Shown here: piece after piece, positions 6,339 to 58,240 of the stretch
How the letters are laid out: the number at the start of each line of letters is the position of its first letter
Position numbering within the stretch: position 1 is the stretch's first letter
Made by a program: the position numbers and the translations under genes
Notes under the pieces: generated by a model
Seen by the model: the letters and a program-made list of their open reading frames with translations, nothing else
Database searches by the model: none
Told to the model about the DNA's origin: nothing
Sequence record: PV730302.1
Strand: one strand, 5' to 3'
DNA from: a phage
DNA: 64,000 nt

Positions 6339-6377
6339 TGATAGGTCTATAGTACCACGTCTACAGGAGATGTAAAC
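6339..6377 (-). promoter_or_regulatory. early promoter/stem-loop cassette upstream of regB
   Basis: minus sense GTTTAC-AT-CTCCTGTAG...TACTATAGACCTATCAA-CTACAGGAG-ATTACAAA-ATG. Confidence 0.7.
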
Positions 6378-8832: not shown

Positions 8833-8872
8833 TTGATAGGTCTATAGTATCATGACTACAGGAGATGTAAAC
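8833..8872 (-). promoter_or_regulatory. early promoter/stem-loop cassette upstream of denV
   Basis: same architecture; inverted repeat CTCCTGTAG/CTACAGGAG brackets the -10. Confidence 0.7.
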
Positions 8873-53942: not shown

Positions 53943-55502
53943 ATGAAAAAGAATGCATTAGTTCAAAAATGGTCCGCTCTGCTGGAAAACGAAGCCCTTC
54001 CTGAAATCGTGGGTGCTTCTAAACAAGCTATCATCGCTAAAATTTTCGAAAACCAGGAACAAGACATCCTGACTGCTCCGGAATACCGTGATGAAAAAAT
54101 CTCTGAAGCATTTGGTTCTTTCCTGACCGAAGCTGAAATTGGTGGTGACCACGGTTATGATGCTACCAATATCGCAGCTGGCCAGACTTCTGGTGCTGTA
54201 ACTCAGATTGGGCCGGCAGTAATGGGTATGGTTCGTCGTGCTATTCCTCATCTGATTGCTTTTGATATTTGCGGTGTTCAGCCTCTGAATAACCCTACCG
54301 GCCAGGTATTTGCCCTTCGTGCAGTTTATGGTAAAGACCCTATCGCTGCTGGCGCTAAAGAAGCTTTCCATCCGATGTATTCTCCGGACGCTATGTTCTC
54401 TGGTCAGGGTGCTGCTAAATCTTTCGAAGCACTGGCTGCAAGCAAAGTTCTGGAAGTTGGTAAAATTTATTCCCACTTCTTCGAAGCTACCGGTGCTGCA
54501 CACTTCCAGGCTGTTGAAGCTGTAACCGTTGATGCTGCTGCTACCGATGCCGCTAAACTGGATGCTGCTGTTACCGCTTTGATTGAAGCAGGTAAGTTGG
54601 CTGAATTGGCTGAAGGTATGGCTACTTCTATCGCTGAACTTCAGGAAGGCTTTAACGGTTCTACCGATAACCCGTGGAACGAAATGGGCTTCCGCATCGA
54701 CAAACAAGTTATCGAAGCTAAATCCCGTCAGCTGAAAGCAAGCTACTCTATCGAACTGGCACAGGACCTTCGTGCAGTACACGGTATGGATGCAGATGCT
54801 GAACTGTCCGGTATCCTTGCTACCGAAATTATGCTCGAAATCAACCGTGAAGTTATCGATTGGATTAACTACTCTGCACAGGTTGGTAAATCTGGTATGA
54901 CCAACACCGTTGGCGCTAAAGCTGGTGTGTTTGACTTCCAGGACCCGATTGATATCCGTGGTGCTCGTTGGGCCGGTGAGAGCTTTAAAGCCCTTCTGTT
55001 CCAGATTGATAAAGAAGCAGCCGAAATCGCTCGTCAGACCGGTCGTGGTGCTGGTAACTTCATCATCGCTTCCCGTAACGTAGTTAACGTACTGGCTGCA
55101 GTTGATACTTCTGTAAGTTATGCAGCTCAAGGTCTGGGTCAAGGTTTCAACGTTGACACAACCAAAGCAGTATTTGCCGGTGTTCTTGGTGGTAAATATC
55201 GCGTTTACATCGACCAGTATGCACGTTCCGATTACTTCACCATCGGTTATAAAGGCGCTAACGAAATGGACGCAGGTATCTACTATGCTCCGTACGTTGC
55301 ACTGACCCCGCTGCGTGGTTCCGATCCGAAGAACTTCCAACCGGTAATGGGCTTCAAAACTCGTTACGGTATCGGTATCAACCCGTTCGCTGACCCGTCT
55401 GCACAGGCTCCTACCAAACGTATTCAGAGCGGTATGCCTGACATCGTTAACAGCCTTGGTCTGAATGGTTACTTCCGTCGCGTATATGTTAAAGGTATCT
55501 AA
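53943..55502 (+). CDS. 23: major capsid protein gp23
   Basis: 519 aa; long blocks identical to remembered T4 gp23. Confidence 0.97.
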   Translation: MKKNALVQKWSALLENEALPEIVGASKQAIIAKIFENQEQDILTAPEYRDEKISEAFGSFLTEAEIGGDHGYDATNIAAGQTSGAVTQIGPAVMGMVRRAIPHLIAFDICGVQPLNNPTGQVFALRAVYGKDPIAAGAKEAFHPMYSPDAMFSGQGAAKSFEALAASKVLEVGKIYSHFFEATGAAHFQAVEAVTVDAAATDAAKLDAAVTALIEAGKLAELAEGMATSIAELQEGFNGSTDNPWNEMGFRIDKQVIEAKSRQLKASYSIELAQDLRAVHGMDADAELSGILATEIMLEINREVIDWINYSAQVGKSGMTNTVGAKAGVFDFQDPIDIRGARWAGESFKALLFQIDKEAAEIARQTGRGAGNFIIASRNVVNVLAAVDTSVSYAAQGLGQGFNVDTTKAVFAGVLGGKYRVYIDQYARSDYFTIGYKGANEMDAGIYYAPYVALTPLRGSDPKNFQPVMGFKTRYGIGINPFADPSAQAPTKRIQSGMPDIVNSLGLNGYFRRVYVKGI

Positions 55503-55518
55503 GATATAACCTTATTAT

Positions 55519-55536
55519 GGGAGACTTCGGTCTCCC
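55519..55536 (+). terminator. terminator hairpin GGGAGAC-UUCG-GUCUCCC after gene 23
   Basis: perfect 7-bp stem with UUCG tetraloop followed by AUUCUUGUUU. Confidence 0.65.
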
Positions 55537-55551
55537 ATTCTTGTTTCTGTA

Positions 55552-55818
55552 CTATGCAATCTTAACTCGACGGTTGATGATATCACGGAAGTCAATACGA
55601 TTTTCTTGGATTTTCAGCCAGTTACCAGATTTGTCTTTGGTATGGGTAGAGTATTCACCGTTCCACCAGAAATCAGTTTCATAAGCCAGAGCTTCGTATT
55701 TCTTAACCAATGCATTAACTGCATTACCATTAGGATTGGTACCAAATTTTTCTACCAGAGCTTTGATGTCTTTGTCAAGGTTAGAAAGAGTGGTACGGAT
55801 AAAGTTTAATTTGTTCAT
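55552..55818 (-). CDS. hypothetical early protein inserted between capsid genes 23 and 24
   Basis: start set at MNKLNF; opposite strand to flanking late genes; own early promoter cassette at 55837-55877. Confidence 0.55.
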   Translation of the reverse strand: MNKLNFIRTTLSNLDKDIKALVEKFGTNPNGNAVNALVKKYEALAYETDFWWNGEYSTHTKDKSGNWLKIQENRIDFRDIINRRVKIA

Positions 55819-55836
55819 TTTTAATCTCCTCATGTT

Positions 55837-55877
55837 TTGATAGGTCTATAGTAACACGACGCTTTTTGTGTGTAAAC
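55837..55877 (-). promoter_or_regulatory. early promoter/stem-loop cassette (core TTGATAGGTCTATAGTAACA)
   Basis: GTTTAC at 55872-55877 in minus sense; abuts gene 24 late promoter. Confidence 0.6.
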
Positions 55878-55883
55878 CACTTT

Positions 55884-55891
55884 TATAAATA
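55884..55891 (+). promoter_or_regulatory. late promoter TATAAATA (gene 24)
   Basis: exact octamer 29 nt upstream of gene 24 ATG. Confidence 0.7.
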
Positions 55892-55920
55892 AAATTATAT
55901 TCTCAATAAGGAAAATAGCA

Positions 55921-57201
55921 ATGGCTAAAATTAACGACCTTTTAAAAGAGTCGACCATTACTTCGAGTTCTTCGATTGGTCGTCCAAATTTAGTAGCTTT
56001 AACCAGAGCTACGACCAAACTTGTTTATACCGACCTTGTAGCTCAGCAGCGTACTAACCAACCTTTGGCTGCTCTATATGGTATCAAATATCTTACAGAA
56101 AAAGATGAATTATCTTTCCAGACGGGTGCTACTTATTCCGGTGCAGTATCCGCTAAAGACCGTGCCACTATCCCAGTTTTCACTGCAGGTGCTGTTTACG
56201 CTAAAGATGATTTGTTCCAATTTGAAAACGTAGTTTATAAAGCTTTGGTAGCAACACCATTTGCAGGTGCTACTGGTGATGAATACGAACAACTTCAAGA
56301 AGCTATTGTTAAGTTGACTATTCGTATTATGTCTGACGCCGCACTGACTGAGCGTTTTGAAGGTCCTCAAGAAGTAGATATTTCTGAAGCTAAATTCGTC
56401 GTTAATAAATGGAACGCTCCAGTTAAATCCCGTAAGTTGAAGAGCACTGTTACTGTAGAACTGGCTCAAGACCTCGAAGCAAATGGTTTCGATGCCCCTA
56501 ATTTCTTGGAAGACCTCCTGGCTACTGAAATGGCTGATGAAATCAACAAAGATATTCTTCAGTCCCTGGTTACGGTTTCCAAGCGTTATAAAGTTGAAGG
56601 TTTGTGTGATGATGGCTTAATTGACCTGAGTTATGCTAACTCACCAGAAGCTTCTCGCAAGCTTTATGAGATAGTTTGTGAAATGGTTTCTCATATCCAG
56701 CGCGCAACCTCTTATACGGCAACTTATGTGGTAGCGAGTACTCGTGTAGCTGCTGTTCTGGCTGGTTCCGGATGGTTAAGACACACCCCACAGAACGACA
56801 AATATCTTTCTGCAAATGCATACGGATTCCTGGAAAACGGTTTGCCGGTGTATTGTGATACCAACACGCCAATTGATTATGTTACTGTAGGTGTTAAAGA
56901 GGAATTTGGTGGGAAAGAAGCAGTAGGTTCTTTGTTCTATGCGCCGTATACAGAAGGCCTTGATTTGGCTGACCCTGAACATGTGGGTACATTTAAAGTG
57001 GTTGTTGACCCTGAAAGCCTGCAACCATCTATTGCATTAATGGTTCGTTATGCACTGGCTGCTAACCCTTATACGGTTACTGCTGATGATAAACAAGCCC
57101 GTATTATTGATGCGACTAATATGGATTTGATGGCGGGACGTTCTGATATGTCTGTATTGCTTGGTGTGAAACTTCCTAAAGTTTTGACTGAATTAAACTA
57201 A
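55921..57201 (+). CDS. 24: capsid vertex protein gp24
   Basis: 426 aa (T4 427); gp23 paralog. Confidence 0.95.
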   Translation: MAKINDLLKESTITSSSSIGRPNLVALTRATTKLVYTDLVAQQRTNQPLAALYGIKYLTEKDELSFQTGATYSGAVSAKDRATIPVFTAGAVYAKDDLFQFENVVYKALVATPFAGATGDEYEQLQEAIVKLTIRIMSDAALTERFEGPQEVDISEAKFVVNKWNAPVKSRKLKSTVTVELAQDLEANGFDAPNFLEDLLATEMADEINKDILQSLVTVSKRYKVEGLCDDGLIDLSYANSPEASRKLYEIVCEMVSHIQRATSYTATYVVASTRVAAVLAGSGWLRHTPQNDKYLSANAYGFLENGLPVYCDTNTPIDYVTVGVKEEFGGKEAVGSLFYAPYTEGLDLADPEHVGTFKVVVDPESLQPSIALMVRYALAANPYTVTADDKQARIIDATNMDLMAGRSDMSVLLGVKLPKVLTELN

Positions 57202-57208
57202 CAAAAAA

Positions 57209-57224
57209 GGGACCTCACGGTCCC
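57209..57224. terminator. bidirectional terminator hairpin GGGACC-TCAC-GGTCCC between 24 and rnlB
   Basis: flanked by A-run upstream and T-run downstream. Confidence 0.65.
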
Positions 57225-57232
57225 TTTATCAT

Positions 57233-58240
57233 TTATTTGGATACTAGGTCAATCCATACATGTCTTAATGTTTCTTTTACAGACTCGATGAGTTGCTTTT
57301 TAACTTCAACAGGATTTTCAGCATCAGTTAATTCTAATTCTTCACGGGCAGCTTCTTCTAAGATATCTTGGACTGTCAAGCCCATTACCTTTCCAAAATC
57401 CTTCGGCGATACTTCACCAATCTTACTGATGACGTTGTTAATGCGGTTAACAGTCACATAATCAGTGAATTGCCACATCAAGTCCATATCGTCTTGGGAT
57501 AAAACCACTGCAACTTTAATAGGCTTATCAGACTTTTTCTTCTCGCTGAATTTAGAGTTCTTACATTTAATCGCTACACGATTTCCATTAGGAAGCCAGA
57601 GTGGGTAGCAAGGTTTTAATACATACCCTTCAGCCGTAAATACTTCGCCTTTTGCTTCAGCATTCCACACATGGGTATTAGCTTCAATTAGCCCGACGTT
57701 ATCTACCATAAAATTATAATCAGGAAGGACGGAATCTAAATCATTTGGCAATTTAATAAGGTCTTCAAATTTACCACGTCCTAAAAGTGGAGCCAGTTTA
57801 AATCCAAAGGTCTTACAAAATGATTCCATCATATAATCATCGACATAGGTCACATCACCGCTTTCGGTGGTAACAATAATGTCAAATACATAAAAATCTT
57901 TAGCACCGTAATCAACATTCTTCTGAATGCCCGTTCCAGCGAATTCACCGAAAACTTGATAAGATACAGCTGCCGAAGTTTCCATAATATCTTGTACGGC
58001 TTTAATAGAATCAGCATAGTTCTTAAGTACAATTTCATAACCATAGAAATCTTCAGCAGGGAGGATAGGGCCAGTGCGCTTGGCGCATGTGACTGCGTCA
58101 CGTTCTATGATTAAACTAAAGTTGGTCCCATGAATCTTCTCACGTGCTGCCCATTCACCACCAGTCAAACCGTTAGTACGGAGTTTTTCGATAAACTTAT
58201 TGTTGTAGTGGTTTTCGAGACTGCTATATTTCTTGAACAT
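57233..58240 (-). CDS. rnlB: RNA ligase 2
   Basis: 335 aa; [19 protein letters not shown]...[18 protein letters not shown] (KxHG motif) matches remembered T4 Rnl2. Confidence 0.95.

Follow-up and report, generated by a model that had tools for sequence, protein, structure and literature searches.

The promoter-early stem-loop (PeSL) and ORFan cassettes of phages RB49 and phi1 contain repeated early promoter/stem-loop modules that act as recombination sites (Arbiol et al. 2010, PMC2839356). A second described system is the segD locus of T4, at the junction of capsid genes 23 and 24. A 2010 review reported that a segD promoter was not identifiable and that the transcript was expected at vanishingly low levels (PMC2988022), yet time-resolved T4 omics published in 2022 placed segD among the early RNAs and the middle proteins, and the protein was detected (PMC9697503 supplements). 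Closest of all are JS98 orf173, VR7 ORF190c and RB69 ORF188c-189c (PHROG 6003), which belong to the same family as the small ORF described here and share its site and orientation. A GenBank annotation of the ORF as a hypothetical protein dates back to JS98 (orf173), and a literature search found no paper naming the orf173, ORF190c or ORF188c-189c loci; the family is an annotated yet undescribed accessory early gene.

The DNA analyzed here, referred to as the window, is a 64,000-nucleotide stretch of phage sequence record PV730302.1, and its gene 23/24 junction carries another allele of this family. The locus is probably a long-resident, exchangeable early accessory unit that encodes a small basic protein. 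Like the PeSL cassettes, it combines a small ORFan with a repeated sigma-70-type early promoter module and a bounding stem-loop, and the module may supply homology for recombination. Unlike in those cassettes, the stem-loop follows the ORF and also serves gene 23, while the late promoter of gene 24 takes the upstream position; the unit sits in the conserved capsid module rather than in a hyperplastic region; and the exchanges seen are allelic replacements between phages, not recombination of neighboring PeSLs. Given its place in the capsid module and the absence of a stem-loop upstream, the unit was not classed as a PeSL.

With the T4 segD locus the unit shares the junction, the antisense orientation, a homologous promoter and 5′UTR, and the position of the start codon, and some genomes of Dhakavirus and Mosigvirus have SegD-like genes directly after the ORF. 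The two loci differ in content: the window has no endonuclease and its 88-aa protein is unrelated to SegD, while T4 has the endonuclease in the place of the ORF. Free-standing seg elements are recognized by a GIY-YIG or HNH nuclease, and the 88-aa protein has no Pfam domain and does not classify as one. Lambdoid morons are similar in being autonomous units with a promoter and a terminator, placed between conserved late genes and missing in many relatives. They differ from the present unit in that this phage is lytic, hence without prophage expression, in that the unit has no compositional anomaly, and in that its transfer relies on homologous recombination in conserved flanking sequence, not on illegitimate insertion. 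Seen in isolation, the gene adds one to the uncharacterised early accessory genes of T4-type phages.

The antisense unit of the window

Over the 601 bases around the junction, identity is 99.2% to Escherichia phage KIT01, 98.7% to AnYang and 90-95% to JS10, JS98 and Bp7; the window was therefore assigned to Dhakavirus (JS98 group, T4-type coliphages, Tevenvirinae). The spacer between genes 23 and 24 is 418 nt long, compared to about 80 nt in most T4-type phages, and the conserved block of head genes 20-24 surrounds it, although the junction itself is polymorphic. Between the gene 23 terminator and the gene 24 late promoter, a self-contained minus-strand unit of about 325 nt contains an early promoter, a Shine-Dalgarno sequence, the ORF and a hairpin. 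The features of the junction and its right-hand neighbor are as follows.

53943-55502, plus strand: gene 23, major capsid protein (519-aa ORF; annotated as major head protein in relatives)
55517-55538, both strands: hairpin AUGGGAGAC-UUCG-GUCUCCCAU (terminator scan and folding)
55552-55818, minus strand: small early gene, 88 aa, pI 9.5, 10.3 kDa (PHROG 6003; ortholog of JS98 orf173 and VR7 ORF190c)
55826-55831, minus strand: Shine-Dalgarno sequence GAGGAG, 7 nt ahead of the ATG at 55818
55834-55877, minus strand: T4-type early promoter module, -35 GTTTAC at 55877-55872, TGT plus -10 TACTAT at 55853-55848 (motif scan)
55847-55834, minus strand: conserved initial transcribed sequence AGACCTATCAAAAC
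55884-55891, plus strand: late promoter of gene 24, TATAAATA, divergent from the early promoter
55921-57201, plus strand: gene 24, capsid vertex protein (single copy; annotation in relatives)
57206-57227, both strands: bidirectional terminator between gene 24 and rnlB, 9-pair stem with U-runs on either strand
57233-58240, minus strand: rnlB, the right neighbor beyond gene 24

The first-pass annotation of this DNA had described a small ORF with an early promoter in antisense position between the late genes 23 and 24; the ORF, the Shine-Dalgarno sequence, the promoter, the hairpin and the late promoter were all found in place. The minus-strand assignment of the ORF also stands, while the length of 89 aa given for it does not: the conserved ATG and the Shine-Dalgarno sequence give 88 aa. 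A mechanical reading from the first ATG extends the frame to 55552-55833 (93 aa), but the ATG conserved in relatives is at 55818-55816, and the 93-aa reading is not conserved because Mosigvirus has an in-frame TAA just upstream of that ATG.

The promoter at 55877-55848 reads GTTTAC-N18-TACTAT with a TG ahead of the -10 element, and it was also scored as TTTACA-17-TACTAT. It has the -35 GTTTAC, the spacer of about 17, the extended -10 (TGnTAnnAT) and the leftward orientation by which early promoters were recognized, and transcription likely starts near 55841. Ten copies of the motif GTTTAC-N14-18-TGnTAnnAT were counted in the window, all of them on the minus strand, compared to an expectation of 0.14. 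The same annotation had called this promoter the ORF's own copy of an early promoter cassette, and this was borne out, as the -10 element and initial transcribed sequence of the junction copy, TACTATAGACCTATCAA, are identical at 6377, 8872, 18187 and 21964. When the ten sites were aligned, the junction copy and four others were found to have in common a longer module, TACTAT-AGACCTATCAA followed by a Shine-Dalgarno sequence and then an ATG, and the SD-ATTAAAAATG arrangement of the junction unit recurs at the copy at 8872. The late promoter TATAAATA and the early promoter point away from each other, with 6 nt between the former and the -35 element of the latter, and the column of the late promoter is invariant in an alignment of four genera.

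On the plus strand the hairpin at 55517-55538 (-15.4 kcal/mol, z -4.0) is followed by a U-run and serves gene 23 as an intrinsic terminator. The minus-strand version folds nearly as well (-14.8 kcal/mol, z -3.6) and marks the 3′ end of the small-ORF unit; as it lacks a U-run, this end is uncertain. An Rfam search gave no family that accounts for the junction region, and the hairpin gave one subthreshold match only. Judging from its structure, the terminator at 57206-57227 should halt transcripts of the next minus-strand early unit upstream, and the small ORF would therefore need a promoter of its own.

Other early promoter copies of the window show features in their own right. At 2458, 18187 and 58623 (minus strand), a G+C-rich stem-loop and a U-run lie directly upstream of the promoter, which is the full PeSL layout as in RB49 and phi1. 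The promoters at 6377, 8872 and 9575 (minus strand) have near-identical spacers (GTTTACATCTCCTGTAG...), and the leader CTACAGGAGAT found downstream at 6377 and 8872 is complementary to the spacer GTTTACATCTCCTGTAG... This complementarity hints at a conserved leader hairpin or at a recent duplication of the module.

The small protein and its family

To judge from its substitution pattern, the ORF codes for a protein under strong purifying selection. Between the window and JS98 there are 15.5 synonymous and 6.5 non-synonymous differences (dN/dS 0.09); the ratio is 0.03 for JS98 and ZJUN4 and 0.06 for the window and vB_EcoM_005, with a range of 0.03-0.10 among close alleles. The G+C content of the ORF (37.5%, compared to 39.9% for the whole window) shows no sign of foreign origin. 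The protein is hydrophilic and basic, and it matches the PHROG 6003 profile with an E value of 2.3e-49 (residues 2-89 against positions 1-88 of 90). AlphaFold2, run with a 15-sequence family alignment, gave a compact model with a mean pLDDT of 93.8, in which the predicted elements are a helix (residues 3-25), a second helix (31-48), a beta hairpin (52-61/67-71) and a third helix (77-87). The residues invariant in the family alignment are F6, L21, N30-G31-N32-A33, N35, A45, W51 and Q71, and the invariant NGNAxN stretch corresponds to the loop before helix 2 and the start of that helix.

Searches of Pfam, NCBIfam, PADLOC, PDB and BFVD found no family, motif or fold relative with a known function. 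The only Pfam match was DUF5380 at an E value of 0.12, far below the cutoff, and NCBIfam and PADLOC yielded nothing for the protein. The best PDB sequence match of the profile was an unrelated protein (E 0.023). Foldseek gave no match below E 2 against PDB, with no nuclease matching the helix-helix-hairpin-helix fold, and its sole match against BFVD was the ABPH49 homolog described below. The possibility that the ORF is a decayed fragment of an endonuclease was ruled out, as an hhalign comparison with SegD gave a probability of 1%.

The homologs are numerous and are concentrated in three genera. A tblastn search found a homolog in 226 phage records, about 225 of them across Dhakavirus, Gaprivervirus and Mosigvirus. 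By identity to the window, 87 records are at 90% or above (the Dhakavirus allele), 32 are at 60-80% (Gaprivervirus, for example VR7 ORF190c) and 107 are below 60% (Mosigvirus); the ORF itself is 94% identical in JS98, 61-65% in VR7 and 32% in the Mosigvirus allele. In JS98, VR7, Mosigvirus RPN187, ZJUN4 and two metagenomic contigs it lies antisense between genes 23 and 24. A Dhakavirus-type gene 23 was found in about 59 records, roughly equal to the number of ORF-bearing Dhakavirus records, and the ORF is therefore essentially universal within Dhakavirus. One apparent absence, in vB_EcoM_CUA3 (PP410321), which might have been taken for a different cargo, is an artefact, because the junction there (L018, about 570-940) is a run of N at an assembly gap.

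Outside the T4-type phages, relatives were found only in Acinetobacter phage ABPH49 (Vequintavirinae; L014 3995-4261) and a similar contig (L012 4001-4264). Both are rV5-like phages, and their homologs are about 34% identical to the window protein and sit in clusters of small early genes, not at a gene 23/24 junction; the gene family therefore crosses phage families. An exhaustive HMMER scan of 1.84 billion representative proteins returned seven hits, of which five are genuine clusters. The remaining two (P0021 and P0023) are Big_6/YadA repeat proteins that match in NGN/SGNW composition only, and they were rejected as spurious.

The small gene appears to be dispensable, because it is absent from most Tequatrovirus, frameshifted in RB69 and truncated elsewhere (variants P0007, P0016 and P0018). 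In the RB69 reference (NC_004928 109291-109531; L017 392-632), indels relative to other Mosigvirus genomes split the ORF into ORF188c (41 aa) and ORF189c (29 aa), which reflects either a pseudogene or old sequencing errors.

Junction states and exchange between lineages

Across the T4-type phages the junction was found in four states: empty, with segD only, with the ORF only, and with the ORF and a SegD-like endonuclease. Most Tequatrovirus have a spacer of about 83 nt in which the terminator is followed by the late promoter and both the early promoter and the ORF are missing. Similarly short spacers are found in T4-type phages of Klebsiella, Enterobacter, Serratia and Citrobacter, and the cassette would therefore be an insertion when viewed on a deep time scale. 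T4 and about 50 close relatives carry segD at the junction, antisense. A SegD homolog that is at least 90% identical to that of vB_EcoM_005, and whose vB_EcoM_005 type is 57% identical to T4 SegD, occurs in about 37 records. This endonuclease gene starts 3 nt past the stop codon of the small ORF and has no Shine-Dalgarno sequence of its own. Its carriers include the Dhakavirus vB_EcoM_005 and IME08 and the Mosigvirus mobillu, AV114-116, ATK47/48, JK45, F2 and the LF82 series; the window itself has no endonuclease at the junction.

These comparisons bear on several claims of the first-pass annotation. Its statement that T4 carries a homing endonuclease at this junction holds for segD, in the same orientation, and its view of the site as a recurrent insertion hot spot is supported by the four junction states and by the cross-genus replacements in mobillu and ZJUN4 described below. 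The idea that the cargo is peculiar to this phage had to be given up. The ORF occupies the same site in about 225 records of three genera, and conservation at the site, which that annotation had itself named as counting against the idea, was found among the near relatives. Being near-universal at the site in Dhakavirus and present there in two other genera, the ORF is an old resident and not private cargo.

Exchange of the unit is clearest in mobillu. This phage is nearly identical to Mosigvirus RPN187 in gp23 (99.6%) and gp24 (99.1%), but its ORF is 98.9% identical to that of the window and only 30% identical to that of RPN187. Informative sites switch from Mosigvirus to Dhakavirus type at the equivalent of window position 55474/55475, 28 nt before the gene 23 stop codon, and back at about 55840, within the conserved -10/initial-transcribed module. 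The imported tract of about 1.04 kb comprises the terminator, the endonuclease gene and the entire ORF, which is the pattern expected of homing with co-conversion of flanking DNA. The right-hand crossover, between the Shine-Dalgarno sequence and the -10 element, falls in the zone reported for PeSL mini-circles (PMC2839356), with the exchange in mobillu being between allelic sites. This phage would thus offer a natural example of a homing endonuclease gene carrying an accessory neighbor across genera, from Dhakavirus to Mosigvirus, and the position of its crossover in a repeated promoter module links the PeSL and the homing ideas of how T4-type genomes are shuffled.

The Tequatrovirus ZJUN4 has a JS98-type cassette with no endonuclease, and its crossovers fall within the 3′ end of gene 23 and a short way ahead of the start codon of gene 24. 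The final 28 nt or so of gene 23 are the left crossover zone for cassette exchanges. In the P0017 contig, a Dhakavirus-like gp23 (91.5%) is combined with an ORF of the Mosigvirus class. From the mixtures in mobillu, ZJUN4 and P0017 it can be seen that the allele class does not track the flanking genes. Between genera the ORF is 32% identical compared to 84% for gp23, while within an allele class it is tightly constrained; the contrast between 32% and 84% could reflect fast evolution or an old xenologous replacement.

The genomes that carry the endonuclease have a synonymously recoded end of gene 23, in which TTC CGT CGC GTA TAT is changed to TTT AGA CGY GTC TAC (window 55475-55502). An interpretation of the whole recoding as target-site immunity was withdrawn, as T4 and endonuclease-free Tequatrovirus share part of it (TTTAGACGT). 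GTCTAC alone is specific to the endonuclease-bearing genomes, and the GTC TAC recoding may be target-site immunity or a trace of the element's origin.

The T4 locus was compared with the window promoter region in the same way. Of the 116 nt that separate segD from gene 24 in T4, 88 are identical to the window, and the alignment score was 92, compared to 20 ± 9 for shuffled sequences. T4 (NC_000866 107233-107322, aligned with window 55819-55920) carries TTTACA-17-TGATATTAT upstream of segD, and the second ATG of SegD (MKYLIY) aligns with the ATG of the small ORF. As the promoter and 5′UTR are homologous and the start codons are aligned, T4 segD occupies the expression slot of the ORF. The homologous promoter could be a simple explanation for the early segD RNA, and this ortholog of the junction promoter is a possible answer to how segD is made early yet said to be promoterless. 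Read-through from upstream units could in principle produce the early T4 segD RNA instead. By analogy, the early class of T4 segD lends indirect support to early activity of the promoter predicted in the window.

Explanations of the unit

A recent insertion of promoter-bearing cargo into this phage, at a hot spot suggested by segD in T4, would fit with the polymorphism of the junction across T4-type phages, with a cassette that has its own promoter module in common with other early genes, and with the cross-genus imports seen in ZJUN4 and mobillu. This explanation is very improbable, as essentially all Dhakavirus records, along with Gaprivervirus and Mosigvirus, have the ORF at this site with its orientation unchanged; in addition, the identities to JS98 (94% for the ORF and 97.7% for gp23) amount to ordinary vertical divergence, and the G+C contents given above carry no compositional signal. 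The ORF could also be tied to the SegD-type endonuclease as a helper, an immunity factor or a dedicated cargo, in which case the genomes with the ORF only would have lost the endonuclease. The placement of the two genes 3 nt apart on one predicted transcript, their joint move into Mosigvirus and the presence of T4 segD in the same slot all suggest such a link, but about 190 of the 226 ORF-bearing records have no endonuclease, the Mosigvirus-class allele was never paired with one among the records examined, and ZJUN4 gained the cassette without it. Moreover, T4-type SegD occurs without the ORF, the Vequintavirinae homologs have no endonuclease neighbor, and the hhalign probability against SegD is 1%, so that a dedicated tie is considered quite unlikely.

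A role that is mainly regulatory was also considered, in which early antisense transcription would damp premature expression of genes 23 and 24 or occlude the late promoter, with the ORF being secondary. In its favor, the early promoter and the late promoter of gene 24 diverge from a gap of 6 nt, the lack of a U-run after the minus-strand hairpin may let transcription continue antisense into gene 23, and T4 keeps the promoter though the ORF is gone. On the other hand, the protein sequence is under purifying selection and has a confidently predicted fold, most T4-type phages run genes 23 and 24 with a spacer of about 80 nt and no early promoter, and the T4 promoter has a gene to serve, namely segD. 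This makes a mainly regulatory role unlikely.

The reading favored here, that of a long-resident and exchangeable early accessory unit, would operate as follows. By analogy with T4 biology, the GTTTAC/TGnTACTAT promoter would be used by unmodified host sigma-70 RNA polymerase in the opening minutes of infection. Efficient translation would follow from the strong Shine-Dalgarno sequence, and the transcript would end, or be stabilized, at the shared hairpin. Once AsiA and MotA remodel sigma-70, the unit would fall silent, and the gp55/gp33-dependent late transcription of genes 23 and 24 would follow. Over a longer time scale, the 23/24 junction has been occupied for long in Dhakavirus, Gaprivervirus and Mosigvirus by two deeply diverged allele classes, and lineages swap the unit by homologous recombination, with crossover zones in the gene 23 3′ end and terminator on one side and in the early-promoter/5′UTR module or the start of gene 24 on the other. 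In some genomes a gene for a SegD-family GIY-YIG homing endonuclease has inserted 3 nt behind the ORF; it would use the promoter of the ORF and probably its ribosomes, and it would drag the ORF allele along by co-conversion. In T4, segD takes the place of the ORF behind the same promoter.

The weakest step concerns the protein. It may be a non-essential early host-interaction factor, for host takeover or counter-defence, and would work through the binding of a macromolecule of the host or the phage and not through catalysis. Because the gene is apparently dispensable, divergent between genera and constrained within an allele class, an early accessory protein that binds a host or phage partner is a plausible though tentative reading. 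More speculative, and rather doubtful at present, is a combined view in which the protein would be a new-fold early effector of counter-defence or host takeover, lineage-specific diversifying pressure would act on its alleles, and a SegD-family endonuclease that captures promoter and ribosomes would have spread it across genera, with the same slot explaining the expression of T4 segD. The protein combines a confidently predicted fold with no known relative found, and it is invisible to screens based on T4 homology. The AV110 early-protein screen, for example, picked its genes by T4 homology and cannot include this one, as T4 is without it.

The window has one copy of the neighboring gene 24, while JS98, VR7 and two metagenomic relatives have two tandem gene 24 paralogs. 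The gp24 of the window is 68% identical to the first JS98 copy, 52% identical to the second and 97.7% identical to that of vB_EcoM_005. Because of the single versus tandem copies and these uneven identities, gene 24 too is, on sequence comparison, a mosaic locus.
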